Sequence record: MZ956761.1
Length of the DNA stretch: 64,000 bases
From: a phage
Direction: 5' to 3' (one strand)
The first letter of the stretch is position 1. Every line of letters starts with the position of its first letter. Of the stretch, positions 2,957 through 50,935 are shown in pieces. The position numbers and the translations under genes are program-made. Below the pieces are notes generated by a model that was given only the letters and a program-made list of their open reading frames with translations, made no database searches and was not told the DNA's origin.

Positions 2957-3514
2957 ATGTCAGAAACTAAGCCTAAATATAATTACGTAAACAATAAAGA
3001 GCTTTTACAAGCTATTATTGATTGGAAAACAGAATTAGCAAATAATAAAGACCCAAATAAAGTAGTTCGTCAGAATGATACTATCGGATTAGCCATTATG
3101 CTTATTGCAGAAGGCTTATCTAAACGTTTCAACTTTTCAGGATACACCCAATCCTGGAAACAAGAAATGATTGCAGATGGTATAGAAGCTTCTATTAAGG
3201 GGCTTCATAATTTTGATGAAACGAAATATAAAAACCCACATGCATATATAACTCAAGCTTGTTTTAATGCATTCGTCCAACGTATTAAAAAAGAACGTAA
3301 GGAAGTTGCAAAGAAATACAGTTACTTCGTTCACAATGTCTATGACAGTCGTGACGACGATATGGTTGCGTTAGTAGATGAAACTTTTATTCAAGACATC
3401 TACGATAAAATGACGCATTACGAAGAATCAACCTATAGAACACCGGGGGCTGAAAAGAAAAGTGTTGTAGACGATTCTCCTAGTTTGGATTTTTTATATG
3501 AGGCTAACGATTAA
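2957..3514 (+). CDS. 55: late-transcription sigma factor gp55
   Basis: 185 aa from ATG 2957; matches recalled T4 gp55 ([23 protein letters not shown]...). Confidence 0.95.
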
Positions 3515-7296: not shown

Positions 7297-8981
7297 AGAA
7301 TTTTAAACTAAACCGAGTTAGGTATCAAAATATAATGTCAGTAGGTGGAAATCCTATTGACATTCAACTAGATAAGGTTCAAAAAACTCTTATTACTGGA
7401 CGAAATGGCGGTGGTAAGTCTACTATGTTAGAAGCCATCACATTTGGGCTTTTTGGCAAGCCATTTCGTGATGTAAAGAAAGGTCAATTAATAAACAGCA
7501 CAAATAAGAAAGAACTTTTAGTTGAACTGTGGATGGAATATGATGAGAAAAAGTACTATATCAAAAGAGGACAAAAACCAAACGTTTTCGAAATCACCGT
7601 TAACGGTACACGTCTTAATGAATCTGCCAGCAGTAAAGATTTCCAAGCAGAATTTGAACAGCTTATCGGAATGTCATATGCCAGTTTCAAGCAGATTGTT
7701 GTCCTTGGTACAGCAGGGTATACCCCTTTCATGGGTTTGTCGACCCCTGCACGAAGAAAGCTTGTGGAAGACCTGCTCGAGGTAGGAACATTAGCTGAAA
7801 TGGATAAGCTTAATAAAGCACTAATACGTGAATTAAATTCACAAAACCAAGTGCTTGATGTTAAAAAAGATAGTATTATCCAACAAATTAAAATATATAA
7901 TGATAACGTTGAACGCCAGAAAAAATTAACTGGTGATAACCTTACTCGTCTACAGAATATGTATGATGATTTGGCAAAAGAAGCTAGAACGTTAAAATCG
8001 GAAATAGAAGAAGCTAATGAAAGATTAGTTAATATTGTTTTGGATGAAGACCCGACTGATGCATTTAATAAAATCGGTCAAGAAGCATTTTTAATTAAAT
8101 CAAAAATTGACTCGTATAATAAAGTCATTAATATGTATCACGAAGGTGGATTATGTCCAACCTGTTTGTCACAATTAAGTTCCGGTGATAAAGTTGTTTC
8201 TAAAATTAAAGATAAAGTTTCTGAATGCACGCATTCGTTTGAACAGCTTTCAACNCNNCNNGNNNNNNNNNNAGTATNTCGTTNNTNANTNNNGNGATNN
8301 TNNNAANNNCNANNNGTNNGTTGCTTGCNNNTNNTNTGTNNCNNTNNAAANCANTNNNTNNNCACGACTGTAGATAAAGCTAAAANAGTTAAAGCAGCTA
8401 TAGAANAAGCATCATCTGAGTTTATTGNCCATGCTGATNAAATNGCNCTGCTTNAAGANGAACTTGATAAAATTGTTAAGNCAAANACTAATTTNNTAAT
8501 GGAAAAATNCCACNGAGGAATTTTGACTGATATGCTCAAAGATTCTGGTATTAANGGTGCTATTATTAAAAAGTACATTCCATTATTTAATAAGCAGATT
8601 AACCATTATCTTAAAATAATGGAAGCGGATTATGTGTTTACATTAGATGAAGAATTTAATGAGACAATTAAATCCCGTGGTCGTGAAGATTTTAGTTATG
8701 CTTCATTCAGTCAAGGCGAAAAAGCACGAATTGATATTGCTCTTCTATTTACTTGGCGTGATATTGCTGAAAAAGTTTCAGGTGTTAAAATAAACACACT
8801 AATTCTCGATGAAGTTTTTGATTCAGCAACTGATGTTGAAGGTGTAAAAGCTATTTCAACTATTTTAGATAGTTTAAAAAATACTAATGTTTTTGTTATT
8901 TCACATAGAGACCACGACCCGCAAGCATATGGTCAGCATCTTCAAATGAAGAAAGTTGGTCGATTTACTGTAATGGTTTAA
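7293..8981 (+). CDS. 46: recombination endonuclease subunit gp46 (Rad50-like ATPase); internal tract of ambiguous bases
   Basis: 562 codons, GTG start; Walker A GRNGGGKST; N-containing tract 8255-8540 gives X residues but frame stays open. Confidence 0.9.
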   Translation: MKNFKLNRVRYQNIMSVGGNPIDIQLDKVQKTLITGRNGGGKSTMLEAITFGLFGKPFRDVKKGQLINSTNKKELLVELWMEYDEKKYYIKRGQKPNVFEITVNGTRLNESASSKDFQAEFEQLIGMSYASFKQIVVLGTAGYTPFMGLSTPARRKLVEDLLEVGTLAEMDKLNKALIRELNSQNQVLDVKKDSIIQQIKIYNDNVERQKKLTGDNLTRLQNMYDDLAKEARTLKSEIEEANERLVNIVLDEDPTDAFNKIGQEAFLIKSKIDSYNKVINMYHEGGLCPTCLSQLSSGDKVVSKIKDKVSECTHSFEQLSXXXXXXXVXRXXXXXXXXXXXXXCLXXXCXXXXXXXXTTVDKAKXVKAAIEXASSEFIXHADXXXLLXXELDKIVKXXTNXXMEKXHXGILTDMLKDSGIXGAIIKKYIPLFNKQINHYLKIMEADYVFTLDEEFNETIKSRGREDFSYASFSQGEKARIDIALLFTWRDIAEKVSGVKINTLILDEVFDSATDVEGVKAISTILDSLKNTNVFVISHRDHDPQAYGQHLQMKKVGRFTVMV

Positions 8982-45126: not shown

Positions 45127-46455
45127 ATGCAACTGAATAATCGCGATTTAAAAAGTATCATTGATAATGAAGCATTGGCTTATGCTATGTACACGGTTGA
45201 AAATCGTGCTATTCCAAATATGATTGATGGATTTAAGCCAGTTCAACGATTTGTTATTGCTCGAGCTCTTGATTTGGCACGAGGAAATAAAGATAAGTTT
45301 CACAAACTCGCTTCTATCGCAGGTGGTGTAGCGGACCTTGGATATCACCATGGCGAAAACTCTGCACAAGACGCAGGTGCTTTGATGGCTAACACTTGGA
45401 ATAATAACTTTCCTCTGTTAGATGGTCAAGGAAACTTTGGTTCTCGTACCGTTCAAAAAGCAGCAGCAAGTCGTTATATTTTTGCTCGTGTAAGTAAAAA
45501 TTTCTATAACGTATATAAAGATACTGAATATGCTCCGGTACATCAAGATAAAGAACACATTCCGCCTGCTTTTTATTTGCCTATTATTCCTACTGTTCTT
45601 CTTAATGGTGTTTCCGGTATTGCAACTGGTTATGCAACTTACATTCTTCCTCATAGTGTTTCTTCTGTCAAGAAAGCTGTACTGCAAGCTCTTCAAGGAA
45701 AGAAAGTAACTAAACCGAAGGTAGAATTCCCAGAATTTCGTGGTGAAGTCGTTGAAATTGATGGGCAGTATGAAATTCGTGGAACATATAAGTTTACTTC
45801 ACGAACTCAAATGCATATCACTGAGATTCCATATAAGTATGATCGTGAAACTTATGTGAGTAAAATCTTAGACCCACTTGAAGATAAAGGCTTCATTACA
45901 TGGGATGATGCTTGCGGTGAGCACGGTTTTGGATTCAAAGTTAAATTCCGTAAAGAATATTCTTTGAGCGATAATGAAGAAGAACGCCATGCAAAAATTA
46001 TGAAAGACTTCGGGTTGATTGAGCGTCGTTCTCAGAATATTACCGTCATTAATGAGAAAGGAAAGCTGCAAGTTTACGATAACGTAGTTGATTTAATTAA
46101 AGACTTCGTTGAAGTTCGTAAAACTTATGTCCAAAAACGAATTGATAACAAAATTAAAGAAACTGAGTCAGCCTTTCGTTTAGCCTTTGCCAAGGCACAT
46201 TTCATTAAGAAAGTAATTTCAGGTGAAATTGTTGTACAGGGTAAAACTCGTAAAGAACTGACCGAAGAACTTTCGAAAATCGATATGTATTCTTCTTATG
46301 TTGATAAACTAGTTGGAATGAATATTTTTCATATGACTTCCGACGAAGCAAAGAAACTTGCTGAAGAAGCTAAAGCTAAAAAAGAAGAAAACGAATATTG
46401 GAAAACTACTGATGTAGTTACCGAATACACCAAAGATTTAGAGGAAATCAAATGA
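45127..46455 (+). CDS. 52: DNA topoisomerase II medium subunit gp52
   Basis: 442 aa; GyrA-like N-terminus; matches recalled T4 gp52. Confidence 0.93.
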   Translation: MQLNNRDLKSIIDNEALAYAMYTVENRAIPNMIDGFKPVQRFVIARALDLARGNKDKFHKLASIAGGVADLGYHHGENSAQDAGALMANTWNNNFPLLDGQGNFGSRTVQKAAASRYIFARVSKNFYNVYKDTEYAPVHQDKEHIPPAFYLPIIPTVLLNGVSGIATGYATYILPHSVSSVKKAVLQALQGKKVTKPKVEFPEFRGEVVEIDGQYEIRGTYKFTSRTQMHITEIPYKYDRETYVSKILDPLEDKGFITWDDACGEHGFGFKVKFRKEYSLSDNEEERHAKIMKDFGLIERRSQNITVINEKGKLQVYDNVVDLIKDFVEVRKTYVQKRIDNKIKETESAFRLAFAKAHFIKKVISGEIVVQGKTRKELTEELSKIDMYSSYVDKLVGMNIFHMTSDEAKKLAEEAKAKKEENEYWKTTDVVTEYTKDLEEIK

Positions 46456-46601
46456 GTCCATTCATTGGTATTACAAGCGCCGCATTAGTATCCGGTGGCA
46501 TTTTACTGGCGGGTTTAGGTGTTGTTCCTGCCGTAGCAGGAGGTCTTCTTGCATTCGGAATTCAACGTGTTATCATGACAGTTATCACAGTCATGCAGTA
46601 A
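46452..46601 (+). CDS. hypothetical small membrane protein (49 aa)
   Basis: ATGA overlap with gene 52; Gly/Ala-rich hydrophobic. Confidence 0.4.
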   Translation: MSPFIGITSAALVSGGILLAGLGVVPAVAGGLLAFGIQRVIMTVITVMQ

Positions 46602-46605
46602 TTTT

Positions 46606-46633
46606 AGGGAGAGCCTCGGCTCTCCCTTTTTTA
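46606..46633 (+). terminator. rho-independent terminator
   Basis: AGGGAGAGC-CTCG-GCTCTCCCT hairpin + TTTTTT. Confidence 0.85.
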
Positions 46634-46653
46634 TTTCAAAAATTTTTTCACAA

Positions 46654-46687
46654 AACGGTTTACAACCAAAGCATACTGTGGTACTAT
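46654..46687 (+). promoter_or_regulatory. T4 early promoter (motA)
   Basis: GTTTACA -35, 17-nt spacer, TGgTACTAT; followed by diverged copy of the leader repeat. Confidence 0.7.
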
Positions 46688-46728
46688 ACAACTATCAACT
46701 ACTGATACAGAATTACGGAGATTAGAAA

Positions 46729-47364
46729 ATGTCTAAAGTAACTTACATCATCAAAGCTTCTAACGATGTTCTGAATGAAAAAACTGCTGCGATTTTAATT
46801 ACCATTGCTAAGAAAGATTTCATTACAGCTGCAGAAGTTCGTGAGGTGCATCCAGATTTAGGTAACGCAGTAGTTAATAGTAATATTGGGGTATTGATTA
46901 AAAAAGGCCTGGTGGAGAAATCTGGTGATGGATTAATCATTACAGGCGAAGCTCAGGATATTATTTCAAATGCAGCAACTTTATATGCGCAGGAAAATGC
47001 TCCTGAACTACTGAAAAAACGAGCAACTCGTAAAGCTCGTGAGATTACTTCCGATATGGAAGAAGATAAAGACTTCATGTTAAAACTTTTAGATGAAAAT
47101 GGATTTGTTCTTAAAAAGGTTGAAACTTACCGCAGTAACTATCTTGCTATTTTAGAAAAACGCACTCACGGAATTCGTAATTTTGAAATTAACAACAATG
47201 GAAATATGCGAATTTTTGGATACAAAATGATGGAACATCATATTCAGAAATTTACTGACATCGGAATGTCATGTAAAATCGCTAAAAACGGTAATGTGTA
47301 TCTTGACATTAAACGCTCGGCAGAAAACATTGAAGCAGTAATCACCGTAGCATCTGAACTGTGA
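46729..47364 (+). CDS. motA: middle-transcription activator MotA
   Basis: 211 aa; size and position as T4 MotA. Confidence 0.88.
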   Translation: MSKVTYIIKASNDVLNEKTAAILITIAKKDFITAAEVREVHPDLGNAVVNSNIGVLIKKGLVEKSGDGLIITGEAQDIISNAATLYAQENAPELLKKRATRKAREITSDMEEDKDFMLKLLDENGFVLKKVETYRSNYLAILEKRTHGIRNFEINNNGNMRIFGYKMMEHHIQKFTDIGMSCKIAKNGNVYLDIKRSAENIEAVITVASEL

Positions 47365-47374
47365 GGAATAAATA

Positions 47375-47704
47375 ATGAACAAGTTAGAAATTGTTAATGA
47401 ACTTCGTCGTTGCGCAGAACCTACTCAAGAGGGTTGGGATATTTGGTACCATGGAGCTTATCTTGGAACTATTGTAAAGATTAAGACTGGTAAATACATG
47501 ATTATTCGTGAAAGTAAAGATGCTCCAGTAGGTATTCGTAATAATTTTATGGCAGCGATAAGTTCATTTACTGATGCAGCTTACGAAATTTACCTTGCCG
47601 ATTATAAAGAATTCCAGGAATCTCAACCAGTTATTCGTTCAATTGGTGTTAACAAAGCTCAACAGAAAACTTTGTGGCAACGTATTAAAGGATGGTTTAA
47701 ATGA
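47375..47704 (+). CDS. hypothetical protein
   Basis: 109 aa, ATG after GAGGAATAAAT. Confidence 0.5.
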
Positions 47705-48162
47705 ACCCATTTATCAATCGTTTAAAAATGTTGAATGTTCCTTTATCTCGTGAAACTCCAGAAAGTCTTGTTGAAAAATTTAAAGCACATGGTTATAAAT
47801 GCACAGAAGAAGATATTCTGAAAGAAGTTCCTGAAATCTGTTGGCAGACTGCGTATTGGGATGAAAACCAAAAGTATCAACGACGAATTGTCTGTGCGGC
47901 CAACCGTTTTAAATTAAAAGATGGACGAACTCTTATTATTCCAGGTGCTCGTCATTATTCTAAAGATATGGCAGAAGTTTTAGATGTAGTTAAACCTCAA
48001 TTAGTTACTCAACAAGTTTGTGATGATGACCAAGGGTTTATTGACCAATATAGTAATTATTGGACACGTGAAGAAGCAATGATTATTGCAACTTACGCTG
48101 GGCAAGTACGTATTGAACGTGGTGGTAATGAAAAAGAACTTTACTCTGAGGACCTTTACTAA
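47701..48162 (+). CDS. hypothetical protein
   Basis: 153 aa, ATGA overlap. Confidence 0.5.
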
Positions 48163-48458
48163 TGAATATTAAAAAGTTTCAAATTGATGGAATTATGAAT
48201 CAAATCCAGGCACTGGAATATGCTAATAAAATGATGTCAACTAATTGGGGAATTTATACCAATGAGCCGGGATTTAAGTTCTGTGATATGGAATTCGCCA
48301 AAAAGCTTGTAGGAAAAGATTATGTATGTCCATTTAGTTCTCCGGTAAATGGAATGCTAAAACCTGCTTTACGTGATCTTTATATTGCGATGAACGAAGA
48401 GATGATAAAAGAGCTAAAACGTCAACTGAAGGTGATTCAATTTGGCCAGGGAAATTAA
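48162..48458 (+). CDS. hypothetical protein
   Basis: 98 aa, TAATG overlap. Confidence 0.5.
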   Translation: MNIKKFQIDGIMNQIQALEYANKMMSTNWGIYTNEPGFKFCDMEFAKKLVGKDYVCPFSSPVNGMLKPALRDLYIAMNEEMIKELKRQLKVIQFGQGN

Positions 48459-48660
48459 TTCAAAATCTGATTATTTTAATTCTCTTAATGATAAAGATAA
48501 AAATCTAATACGGCATTTTATCGTTGAGATGGGATATACTGATACACGTGATTTAAGAGAACACATATTTGAATGTGGTGTAGCTAAAAAGTTTTCATTC
48601 ACATGCAAATGCTTGAGAGAGGTAATTCAGCACTATGAACAATTTAGTCGCAAAGCATAA
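48442..48660 (+). CDS. hypothetical protein (start uncertain)
   Basis: ORF-track frame, non-ATG start; first in-frame ATG gives only 43 aa. Confidence 0.3.
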   Translation: MAREINSKSDYFNSLNDKDKNLIRHFIVEMGYTDTRDLREHIFECGVAKKFSFTCKCLREVIQHYEQFSRKA

Positions 48661-48743
48661 TTTTAATAAAGCTTCTGTTCATAAGGATAAGAAGAAAGCG
48701 TTTAAAGAATCTAATCGCAAACAGAAACATAAGGGGAAGGTCT

Positions 48744-49022
48744 ATGATTATTGATTCTCAGTCTGTGGTTCAATACACAATCAAAATTGATATTCTAGAA
48801 AAGCTATATAAGTTTCTACCAAATTTATACCACTCAATTGTTAATGAATTAGTTGAAGAACTACATCTCGAGAATAATGATTTCTTGGTTGGAACTTATA
48901 AAGACCTCTCAAAAGCAGGATATTTTTACGTAATTCCAGCTCCAGGAAAAAGTATTGATGATGTATTAAAAACTATAATGATTTATGTCCATGATTATGA
49001 AATTGAAGATTATTTCGAATGA
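48744..49022 (+). CDS. arn: anti-restriction nuclease Arn
   Basis: 92 aa; matches recalled T4 Arn; ATG after AAGGGGAAGG. Confidence 0.75.
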   Translation: MIIDSQSVVQYTIKIDILEKLYKFLPNLYHSIVNELVEELHLENNDFLVGTYKDLSKAGYFYVIPAPGKSIDDVLKTIMIYVHDYEIEDYFE

Positions 49023-49171
49023 GTCATAATCTTGAAAAGGTAATCGAGCATAATGTAGCTCAGGAACGTAAGTCGTTCAAGGAATTCGTAGAAAAAATTT
49101 TTGAAGAAAATAACACAGACCAGTTTACAAATCACGCGTCTGATGATATTATAACAAAGTCAACTAATTGA
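49019..49171 (+). CDS. hypothetical small protein (50 aa)
   Basis: ATGA overlap with arn; contains asiA promoter-like sequence. Confidence 0.3.
   Translation: MSHNLEKVIEHNVAQERKSFKEFVEKIFEENNTDQFTNHASDDIITKSTN
49120..49153 (+). promoter_or_regulatory. T4 early promoter candidate for asiA
   Basis: GTTTACA -35, 17-nt spacer, TGaTATTAT. Confidence 0.6.
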
Positions 49172-49183
49172 GTGGTATAGTTA

Positions 49184-49456
49184 ATGAATAAAAACATTGA
49201 TACAGTTCGTGAAATTATTACTATTGCATCTATTTTGATTAAATTTTCCAGAGAAGATATTGTTGAAAATCGTGCTAATTTTATTGCATTTCTGAATGAG
49301 ATTGGAGTAACGCATGAAGGTAGAAAATTAAATCAGAATTCATTCCGTAAAATTGTTTCTGAATTAACTCAAGAAGATAAGAAAACCCTCATCGACGAAT
49401 TCAACGAGGGTTTTGAGGGTGTATATCGATATCTAGAGATGTATACGAACAAATAA
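49184..49456 (+). CDS. asiA: anti-sigma70 factor AsiA
   Basis: 90 aa; matches recalled T4 AsiA (MNKNIDTVREIIT...). Confidence 0.95.
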   Translation: MNKNIDTVREIITIASILIKFSREDIVENRANFIAFLNEIGVTHEGRKLNQNSFRKIVSELTQEDKKTLIDEFNEGFEGVYRYLEMYTNK

Positions 49457-50113
49457 TTATTTAGCCCTTCCTAATATTCTGGCCGCCTGAGCACATATTG
49501 ATTCAAGGCGGTCATTACTTATATGATCATTTCTATACCAGTACATGGTTATCGTTCCAGCATAGATATTATCCAAATTAAAATATGGACAACTGTACAT
49601 GTAGTTTATTTCGGGAGTAGGCTTTTTAGTTGGTAAAAAAGCAAATTTTGAGTCAGAATAATAATGACGTCCATTTAAATGAACTGTATATTCATCCATA
49701 GTTTTATCAACAGGATATCCTCCAAGTGATTTTTCAGTTATTGTTGAAGGTAATCTTCCTTCGTATGCTATAATATCAACAAAATAGTTTAAGTTTTTAG
49801 GGCGGAAAGAATACACCGCACTAAAGTCTGCCTCAGATGATATATGAACTATCTGGAGTTGTTCCAGGGCGACAGATTCAAAGCGTGCATTTCTTTCCTT
49901 TTCAATAATTTCACTGTATGTTTCATACTTTGATTGCTTATAGTACTCAAAGAAACTATCTCCCCTATACCAAACAATCGCCATCATAAATAAAAGAATT
50001 ACGACAGCTACCCGGGAAGCAAGAACATTCCCGGTAGCGTTATCTTTGAACAAGCGATCTAGAACACCAAACAGAATATCAGAGGGCGAAAATGATATTC
50101 TAGGTGCTGCCAT
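49457..50113 (-). CDS. t: holin T
   Basis: 218 aa; matches recalled T4 holin (MAAPRISFSPSDILFGVLDRLF...); SD AAGGAGG. Confidence 0.95.
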   Translation of the reverse strand: MAAPRISFSPSDILFGVLDRLFKDNATGNVLASRVAVVILLFMMAIVWYRGDSFFEYYKQSKYETYSEIIEKERNARFESVALEQLQIVHISSEADFSAVYSFRPKNLNYFVDIIAYEGRLPSTITEKSLGGYPVDKTMDEYTVHLNGRHYYSDSKFAFLPTKKPTPEINYMYSCPYFNLDNIYAGTITMYWYRNDHISNDRLESICAQAARILGRAK

Positions 50114-50143: not shown

Positions 50144-50935
50144 TTATACTCTTGCACCATATATTGTACCAACTTTAGTCCAAGTTGGAGCATTACCAGT
50201 AACAGCTTTACCTGCTGCGCCACCCGAGTGAACAGTTCCTCCAGTACCACCTTGAATATATGAAGATTTGCCCGCAGCCCCCAAATCTCCACCATCTCCT
50301 CCATGGTGAACCCCAGAAACAGTACCTTTACCAGGAGCAGAAATTGTAGCGGCAGATGCTGCCGCTGCGCCGCCGCCTGCTGCACCCGCTGCACCAAATG
50401 GACGACCTCCGCCGCCACCAAATATCATATCCATCTGGGGGAAAGGATGATATCTAGCACCAGCGCCACCACCACCTCCACCACCGATAATACCATTATT
50501 GTTTATTCTTAAACGAGTTCCAATTCCGTTATTTATTGCAGTTCCTCCTGCTCCACCAGCAGAGTTACTTCCGCCATTTCCTCCTCGACCCAATACATGA
50601 ACACCACTATTAATATTTAAGGTAACATATGCATTAGTTAATGAGCTAGGAAAATCTAAGCATGGTTGACCTGTCGATGAAGAAACGATATTGCCTGTAA
50701 TAGTAATAACAACAGGAGTACTTCCTTGGGCTTTTATCCAATTTATTAGTGTGTCTTTATTATAAGAATTGCTAGCACCAATGCTGTAATATACTTCTTT
50801 AGATTGTCCGGCCATTGAGCTCATCCAACCAGGAACTGAAACACGAACTGCTCTCATCGCAGCATCCATCCAGCGTTGTCCAGTTTCATTCACGGCAGAT
50901 TCACCAATCCAGCCAGGAACACCTACAATTGCCAT
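50144..50935 (-). CDS. 38: long tail fibre adhesin gp38 (T2/T6-type, glycine-rich)
   Basis: 263 aa; poly-Gly motifs between variable segments; directly downstream of gene 37. Confidence 0.85.
   Translation of the reverse strand: MAIVGVPGWIGESAVNETGQRWMDAAMRAVRVSVPGWMSSMAGQSKEVYYSIGASNSYNKDTLINWIKAQGSTPVVITITGNIVSSSTGQPCLDFPSSLTNAYVTLNINSGVHVLGRGGNGGSNSAGGAGGTAINNGIGTRLRINNNGIIGGGGGGGAGARYHPFPQMDMIFGGGGGRPFGAAGAAGGGAAAASAATISAPGKGTVSGVHHGGDGGDLGAAGKSSYIQGGTGGTVHSGGAAGKAVTGNAPTWTKVGTIYGARV

Follow-up and report, generated by a model that had tools for sequence, protein, structure and literature searches.

The small genes that lie between motA and arn/asiA in phages of the T4 type have long been catalogued as the series arn.4, arn.3, arn.2, arn.1 (T4p261-T4p258; UniProt P22916, P22917, P22919 and P22920). 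In a T4 time course all four products were detected; all were of the early class at the RNA level, and at the protein level Arn.4, Arn.3 and Arn.2 were early and Arn.1 was middle (PMC9697503, supplements). RNA sequencing of T2 revealed a single abundant transcript running from arn.4 to arn, and a pairing site for the host small RNA ArcZ was placed at positions +285 to +294 of arn.2, with a putative RNase E motif, GcAUU, 11 nucleotides (nt) before the annotated ATG of arn.1, in a so-called 70-nt intergenic region (bioRxiv 10.64898/2026.06.19.733364). Our search of the literature found no functional study of arn.4, arn.3, arn.2 or arn.1. We analysed the equivalent interval in a 64,000-nt stretch of phage DNA from sequence record MZ956761.1 (hereafter the window), in which positions 47,375 to 48,660 had been flagged, in an earlier reading of the sequence (the original prediction), as three translationally coupled open reading frames (ORFs) and a possible fourth.

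Comparison with known phages identified the flagged ORFs, by sequence and position, as arn.4, arn.3, arn.2 as well as arn.1, the gene names being those of the T4 reference annotation. A megablast search with positions 46400-49600 returned 100% identity to Escherichia phage ADUt, a Tequatrovirus, and 97-98% identity to hundreds of T4/T2-type phages; orthology with the T4 set was evident both from near-identical sequence and from the same place between motA and arn/asiA. The original prediction had placed the first three ORFs correctly (Table 1), together with their coupled arrangement, in which the genes overlap by 4 nt (ATGA) and by 1 nt (TAATG), and matches to Pfam MotCF and MotA_activ, DM_Arn and AsiA confirmed motA, arn and asiA as the flanks. 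Its possible fourth ORF turned out to be a real gene of 72 amino acids (aa) initiated at TTG, that is, a long form of arn.1. With this long form and a lysine-rich ORF of 39 aa that follows it, the overlapping genes form an unbroken series from arn.4 to asiA.1: successive overlaps along arn.4, arn.3, arn.2, arn.1, the 39-aa ORF, arn and asiA.1 measure 4, 1, 17, 26, 11 and 4 nt. These genes are thus shown to constitute one gap-free, translationally coupled chain downstream of motA. The T4 reference has the same gene content and order at about 97-98% nucleotide identity, its long arn.1 protein is identical, and its arn.4 protein is identical apart from the first codon, which is ATA in T4 (NC_000866, locus L002, positions 3455-3457 on the minus strand) and ATG in the present phage (at 47375) and in most relatives. 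Because ATA replaces ATG, only the C-terminal 68 aa of arn.4 are annotated in T4; the frame of the remaining 108 codons is intact there and encodes the same protein as in the window. The T4 annotation differs further in giving arn.1 as 43 aa and in leaving out the 39-aa ORF.

Pooled pairwise Nei-Gojobori comparisons with homologous loci gave ratios of nonsynonymous to synonymous substitution (dN/dS) of 0.28 for arn.4, 0.18 for arn.3 and 0.26 for arn.2, with changes concentrated at third codon positions, and of 0.15-0.28 across all ORFs, the arn.1 extension included; since the pairs are not phylogenetically independent, these values are qualitative. They bear on the idea that some of the ORFs are chance reading frames or non-functional leftovers, which could draw on the lack of an ATG and the 68-aa annotation of arn.4 in T4 and on the 43-aa annotation of arn.1. 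Against it stand the purifying selection seen on all ORFs, including their disputed N-terminal parts, conservation in hundreds of genomes, the otherwise intact T4 arn.4 frame, and detection of the proteins in T4, where Arn.4 is listed among the products found by proteomics despite its 68-aa annotation (PMC9697503, supplements). The probability left to this idea is negligible, and as far as the comparative data and the published proteomics reach it is already refuted. That the four small genes of the interval are real and expressed early genes, belonging to a T4/T2-type phage, is near certain.

The start of arn.1 deserves closer attention. As annotated in T4 and ADUt, arn.1 encodes 43 aa from the ATG at 48529, so that 70 nt on the arn.2 side and 83 nt on the arn side appear as gaps. 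We examined T4-like relatives in a set of 38 loci from IMG/VR, retrieved through a match to Arn.3. Twenty of these encode an Arn.1 homologue of 65-75 aa, with an N-terminal part (consensus DYFNSLN..K..I..FI.ELGY) conserved to the same degree as the remainder, and dN/dS is 0.21 for the 29 upstream codons and 0.21 for the 43 downstream codons. The relatives start the gene upstream, with ATG or GTG after a good Shine-Dalgarno sequence, and have Leu at the position of the T4 "start" Met. At one locus (L021) the homologous arn.2-arn.1 junction reads ctgaaggtgatcaATG, and in a wider excerpt ...ctgaaggtgatcaATGccgaga.... In the present phage the TTG is likewise preceded, at a distance of 6 nt, by the Shine-Dalgarno sequence AAGGTGA, and the 72-aa frame is found unchanged in the T4 reference, where the TTG lies at about position 161892. 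PHROG 4452 is a 72-residue profile, which the long protein matches at E 7e-39, and the annotation of phage U115 gives arn.1 as 72 aa with a ribosome-binding site. On this comparative evidence, arn.1 is real in its 72-aa form and not in the 43-aa form of the T4 reference. Four residues of the long protein, H41, C45, C57 and H64, are invariant among the aligned homologues, a tetrad that suggests a candidate small zinc site.

It follows from a real long arn.1 that the 70-nt "intergenic region" between arn.2 and arn.1 is coding. The ArcZ pairing site, CCAGGGAAAT, coincides with codons 2-5 of the long gene, and the GCATT of the putative RNase E motif also falls within its frame, at codons 24-26. 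With ArcZ pairing at the start of arn.1, control by ArcZ and RNase E as published would act inside coding sequence and not in a spacer. Of the loci examined, those of the T4/T2-type group alone carry the ArcZ motif, and it is these that start arn.1 with TTG in place of ATG. No significant RNA structure was predicted at the arn.2-arn.1 junction (z = 0.09). ArcZ may affect translation of arn.1, and either ribosomes on arn.1 or an ArcZ-Hfq roadblock may explain the protection from RNase E.

The 39-aa ORF (sequence MNNLVAKHNFNKASVHKDKKKAFKESNRKQKHKGKVYDY) has an isoelectric point (pI) of 10.2. All 38 T4-like loci have it, as do 1197 phage records, and at the nucleotide level no other part of the arn.2-arn interval is as well conserved; amino-acid replacements in the ORF are conservative (proportion of nonsynonymous differences, pN, 0.135 versus 0.79 for synonymous differences, pS). 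It is annotated in RB68 and U115 and unannotated in the T4 reference and ADUt. An ArfA-like ribosome rescue peptide was considered for this ORF. PDB sequences include ArfA-ribosome entries; a search of them with a profile of 13 homologues of the ORF found nothing, the sole Pfam match was DUF7230, and the lead was dropped.

Among the four gene products, Arn.3 founds a very large family spread across phages. It matches PHROG 839 at E 1.5e-73, and a word-indexed search returned 156 clusters, all carrying PF26092 (T4_Y16D), a membership taken from precomputed annotation, as this model is missing from the Pfam copy (2025) that we searched. A profile search of 1.84 billion representatives recovered 3310 Arn.3-family clusters at E≤1e-3; with the cut-off at E≤1e-10 the number was 1364. 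The unit that they have in common is the C-terminal part of Arn.3, about 95 residues, and most members are stand-alone proteins of 83-125 aa. Arn.3, the founding member, shares the entire core and the C-terminal motif with the PF26092/PHROG 839 family and differs from most members in a helical N-terminal extension (residues 1-45), which is lineage-specific. Across 70 diverse members H85, G112, F113, R123, Q135, L147 and E150 (Arn.3 numbering) are invariant, and V64, A66, A67, R84, M90, Q111, D115, A126, A130, S149, L152 and Y153 are at least 90% conserved; nearly all of 146 representatives checked end in [FY]SE[DNG]L[YH]. The family motif set, R-H / QGF-D / R--A / GQ / [FY]SE-L[YH] with the last at the C-terminus, appears in the Arn.3 of the window as R84-H85, Q111-G-F-x-D115, R123, Q135 and S149-E150-x-L-Y153. 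In a confident AlphaFold2 model of Arn.3 (predicted local distance difference test, pLDDT, 89.4), a four-strand meander leads into a helix, after which come two more strands and another helix; the conserved residues lie behind strands or where helices begin. A small predicted alpha/beta domain in which Arg, His, Asp, Glu and Gln residues are invariant would suit an enzyme that handles phosphate, or else a ligand binder of high specificity.

The model had no fold match in the PDB. A Foldseek search against BFVD returned uncharacterised phage proteins and three weak matches (E 0.009-0.1) described as "large polyvalent protein associated domain-containing". The polyvalent-protein class has been proposed to deliver early anti-host effectors, and its domains resemble Arn.3 in being small, of undefined function, provided with enzyme-like polar residues, used early against the host and found also as solo phage genes (Iyer et al. 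2017, PMC5512222). They differ in that none of the 70 Arn.3 family members matched any Pfam LPD model. In the longer, fused Arn.3 homologues, the N-terminal parts carried no Pfam or PHROG annotation and no recognisable partner domain. A second comparison is with phage proteins that bind or degrade nucleotide signals (Acb1, Acb2/T4 vs.4, Tad1, Tad2 and Apyc1), which are small, stand-alone, non-essential, early and widespread in unrelated phages, as Arn.3 is. Arn.3 differs from them in showing no detected sequence or fold similarity to any solved structure; in addition, its invariant polar residues outnumber those of a typical sponge.

We then considered which genes accompany Arn.3. Every one of the 38 T4-like loci has arn.3 and the 39-aa ORF; motA is present in 37, arn.4 in 34, arn.2 in 31, and the long arn.1 and arn in 20 each. 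The order arn.4-arn.3 is kept in 34 of the 38 and arn.3-arn.2 in 31, down to about 31-35% protein identity, and arn.3 is kept without arn.2 at some loci (L019, L020, L027, L029, L030 and L036) and without arn.4 at others (L041, L045 and L046). Other phages (jumbo and Vi01-like ones, along with many metagenomic contigs) contribute about 35 loci, at which small unrelated ORFs surround the Arn.3 homologue, and across 80 viral loci and metagenomic contigs no recurrent Arn.3 neighbour was seen outside T4-like phages. At three loci (L043, 6822-7703; L047, 6340-7239; L055, 6167-7180) a protein of about 295 aa that ends MazG-like (...AWDEIKDRKGYLNADG...) is encoded one or two genes downstream of the Arn.3 homologue, and in this phage lineage of about 224-230 kb it is followed by an AAA+ ATPase, both names coming from motif reading. 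The MazG-like gene was rejected as a general partner, for it is restricted to one jumbo-phage lineage. A scan of bacterial genomes with a narrow search pattern yielded only 9 loci and was uninformative. The solitary Arn.3 of other phages and the lack of arn.2 or arn.4 at some T4-like loci argue that Arn.3 works on its own; by the same distribution, Arn.4 and Arn.2 would be either independent factors or additions peculiar to their lineage.

We therefore put forward, as a tentative possibility, that arn.4-arn.1 encode independent early host-interaction factors with an enzyme-like Arn.3. The products would be accessory host-interaction or counter-defence factors, largely independent of each other and not parts of one obligate complex. 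Arn.3 would be the ancient and widely shared part, and would either catalyse a reaction of some universal phosphate-bearing ligand or bind it tightly; a nucleotide, a signal made from one, or the end of a nucleic acid might serve as this ligand. Arn.4, Arn.2 and Arn.1, which are basic and specific to T4-like phages, would more probably bind host proteins or nucleic acids, and in T4/T2-type phages ArcZ would pair on the arn.1 start region. The alternative closest to hand is that Arn.4, Arn.3, Arn.2 and perhaps Arn.1 form one complex, in which catalysis would reside in Arn.3 as the core, directed to a structure of the host by its basic, T4-specific partners. The overlapping stops and starts, by which the proteins are probably made in coupled amounts, would suit such a complex, as would the conserved arn.4-arn.3 and arn.3-arn.2 orders and the early RNA and early protein kinetics shared by Arn.4, Arn.3 and Arn.2. 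However, overlapping starts are usual across T4 early regions and hence are not specific evidence, Arn.3 homologues occur in the other phage lineages mentioned above with no relative of Arn.4 or Arn.2, and some T4-like loci keep arn.3 but have no arn.2 or no arn.4. A complex is possible on this evidence, but we regard it as doubtful.

The reading as independent factors gains little from direct searches for function. Pfam (2025 copy), NCBIfam and PADLOC gave no significant functional match for the arn.4-arn.1 proteins, only unnamed families or sub-threshold hits, and single-sequence and profile searches against PDB sequences returned nothing significant for any of the five proteins of the interval. 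The original prediction that no function could be assigned from sequence was in keeping with these profile and fold searches. Arn.4 (basic, pI 9.2) is predicted to fold into a helix, a five-strand sheet and a long helix; at its C-terminus comes a further helix, conserved, basic and amphipathic, whose last residues read WQ(R/K)IKGWFK. Arn.2 (basic, pI 8.9) carries the conserved motifs NWG-Y-N-P and KP-L--Y, matches PHROG 1844 at E 2e-51 and falls, with 23 clusters bearing PF26819, in a family confined to T4-like phages; from its conservation pattern it is expected to be mainly helical. Several candidate similarities were tried and set aside. A PUF/Pumilio repeat in Arn.2 reached E 0.004 for the whole sequence but only 8 and 54 per domain, and the motif NWG-Y-N-P is not of the N-Y-x-x-Q recognition type. 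Matches to REase_II (E 0.003), PD-T4-9_B (E 0.003), the Nif11 leader (E 0.005) and Prok-E2_B (E 0.02-0.06) were short, below cut-off or not family-wide; membership of Prok-E2_B, which would call for a family-wide profile match together with a UBC fold with a catalytic Cys, was not supported.

These properties also bear on the proposal that the four proteins are transcription-takeover factors, which would act with MotA and AsiA on host RNA polymerase or its regulators. Their genes are located between motA and asiA and are expressed alongside both; Arn.4, Arn.2 and Arn.1 share small size and a basic character with many phage proteins that bind RNA polymerase or nucleic acids; and Arn.1 has the candidate zinc-binding His/Cys tetrad. 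Set against this, none resembles MotA, AsiA or any known RNA polymerase-binding protein, the Arn.3 family occurs in many phages that lack MotA and AsiA, and gene order in T4 early regions predicts function weakly. Taken together, we consider a role in transcription takeover quite unlikely.

A different role is implied by the names under which these genes circulate. In the ADUt record (OQ466432, locus L001) arn.4, arn.3 and arn.2 are called "anti-restriction nuclease", and the PHROG families of Arn.4-Arn.1 are all of "unknown function" except PHROG 4452, that of Arn.1, which bears the same label. In ADUt the names most likely represent propagation from "arn.N" and are not evidence, and the PHROG 4452 label seems to be derived from the gene name. 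The same record calls asiA.1 "anti-sigma factor" and motA.1 "transcriptional regulator"; both match only PHROG families of unknown function and have no Pfam match, and their labels appear to have been propagated from neighbouring gene names. The naming, here and in many other GenBank records, would be in order if the four were Arn-like anti-restriction proteins, either DNA mimics or nuclease inhibitors, and co-transcription with arn points the same way, as does a speculation about counter-defence by the authors of the T2 study. Arn and the arn.N genes do share a transcript and early expression in T4, but they are unlike in sequence, DM_Arn match, acidity and phylogenetic distribution. The only DM_Arn match in the region is the true arn, and the four proteins Arn.4, Arn.3, Arn.2, Arn.1 showed no similarity to one another or to Arn (in a database of 9 proteins the best E was >1). 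Their pI values are 9.24, 5.31, 8.91 and 8.51, against 4.55 for Arn, so that none has the strongly acidic surface of a DNA mimic. Moreover, arn is present at 20 of the 38 T4-like loci as against 38 of 38 for arn.3 and the 39-aa ORF (the loci having been retrieved by an arn.3 match), which means that the neighbours are not tied to arn. An Arn-like function is accordingly very unlikely. The original prediction had offered host takeover or anti-restriction from context. A role of this broad kind is still plausible by association, through early expression with motA, arn and asiA, the transcript shared with arn, dispensability and the weak polyvalent-protein matches, whereas the lack of Arn similarity, of a DM_Arn match and of acidity speaks against its Arn-like version.

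Several observations weigh against our proposal of independent factors with an enzyme-like Arn.3. Searches by homology, fold, fused domain and conserved neighbour gave no direct functional clue, and for this reason its mechanistic part is an inference from conservation pattern and context. Coupling and the arn.4-arn.3-arn.2 order, conserved across T4-like genera, would also fit a complex. The invariant polar residues of Arn.3 could equally bind a universally conserved host macromolecule, and the polyvalent-protein matches are weak. Genetic data are of limited help: in T4 CRISPRi-ART, arn.1, arn.2, arn.3 and arn.4 were all Not Fit, but so were motA and asiA (PMC11879866, supplement 15), and guide design for arn.4 and arn.1 had followed the short T4 annotations. 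As motA and asiA score alike, the assay says little; it only shows that arn.1-arn.4 are not strongly required on the laboratory host. The whole explanation, comprising real coupled genes, independent host-interaction factors and ArcZ pairing on the arn.1 start, is one that we hold about as readily as we doubt. A more far-reaching joint version appears rather unlikely at present. In that version Arn.3/T4_Y16D would be a new enzyme or high-affinity ligand-binding fold with which thousands of unrelated phages, early in infection, break down or sequester a universal host molecule, for instance a nucleotide signal of immunity or the damaged or modified end of a nucleic acid. Apart from this, in T4/T2-type phages ArcZ over the TTG start of a mis-annotated, 72-aa and possibly zinc-binding Arn.1 would control translation and stability of the operon.

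The features of the region are collected in Table 1. A consensus scan found no terminator-like site on the plus strand between motA and asiA, and the exact MotA box (TGCTTNA) is absent from 46400-49600. Rfam gave nothing at the gathering score, with three weak sub-threshold matches only. Meaningful repeats and compositional anomalies were looked for and none was seen, and no paralogues were found in the window. After asiA, holin gene t and gene 38 follow on the opposite strand. Gene 38 (50144-50935, minus strand) is of the T2 type, encoding a 263-aa glycine-rich adhesin at 48-52% GC and not the T4-type tail-fibre assembly chaperone, and the phage is therefore T2-like at its receptor-recognition module. 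Elsewhere in the window, ambiguous bases (N) around 8454 and 8459 were noticed in a pattern-search match at 8449-8473.

Table 1. Features in and around the motA-asiA interval; positions are those of the window.
Feature	Positions	Strand	Basis
gene 52	45127-46455	+	
motA.1	46452-46601	+	
Terminator-like hairpin of the preceding unit, before the motA promoter	46606-46627		consensus scan
Early-type sigma-70 promoter-like site 5' of motA, TTTACA-17-TACTAT	46659-46687	+	consensus scan
motA, middle-transcription activator	46729-47364	+	Pfam MotA_activ E 5e-61, MotCF E 9e-67
arn.4, 109 aa	47375-47704	+	
arn.3, 153 aa	47701-48162	+	
Arn.3 core domain, residues ~58-153, T4_Y16D	47872-48159	+	
arn.2, 98 aa	48162-48458	+	
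Shine-Dalgarno sequence AAGGTGA of long arn.1, 6 nt before TTG 48442	48429-48435	+	read from sequence
arn.1, long form, 72 aa, TTG start	48442-48660	+	
ArcZ pairing site, codons 2-5 of long arn.1	48446-48455	+	coordinates from T2 preprint and sequence
GCATT, putative RNase E motif, 11 nt before ATG 48529, within the long arn.1 frame	48513-48517	+	
Lysine-rich ORF, 39 aa	48635-48754	+	Pfam DUF7230 E 1e-11; PHROG 1359 E 5e-23
arn, DNA-mimic inhibitor of McrBC	48744-49022	+	Pfam DM_Arn E 1e-53; pI 4.55
asiA.1	49019-49171	+	
Early-type promoter-like site near asiA	49124-49152		consensus scan
asiA	49184-49456	+	Pfam AsiA

These results have consequences for how the region is read in T4-type phages generally. 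The T4 reference annotation is probably wrong here, in that arn.1 is 72 aa long and the 39-aa gene is missing, and the name "anti-restriction nuclease" given to arn.N ORFs in many GenBank records is unsupported. Two points are worth following up. The first is the overlap between arn.1 and ArcZ: with the pairing site on the arn.1 start and the "intergenic region" of the 2026 study coding, the way in which the ArcZ/RNase E mechanism should be tested is altered. The second is the Arn.3 family, whose roughly 3,300 clusters at 50% identity, enzyme-like residues and lack of a solved or recognisable fold make it a well-defined target for biochemistry and for anti-defence screens.

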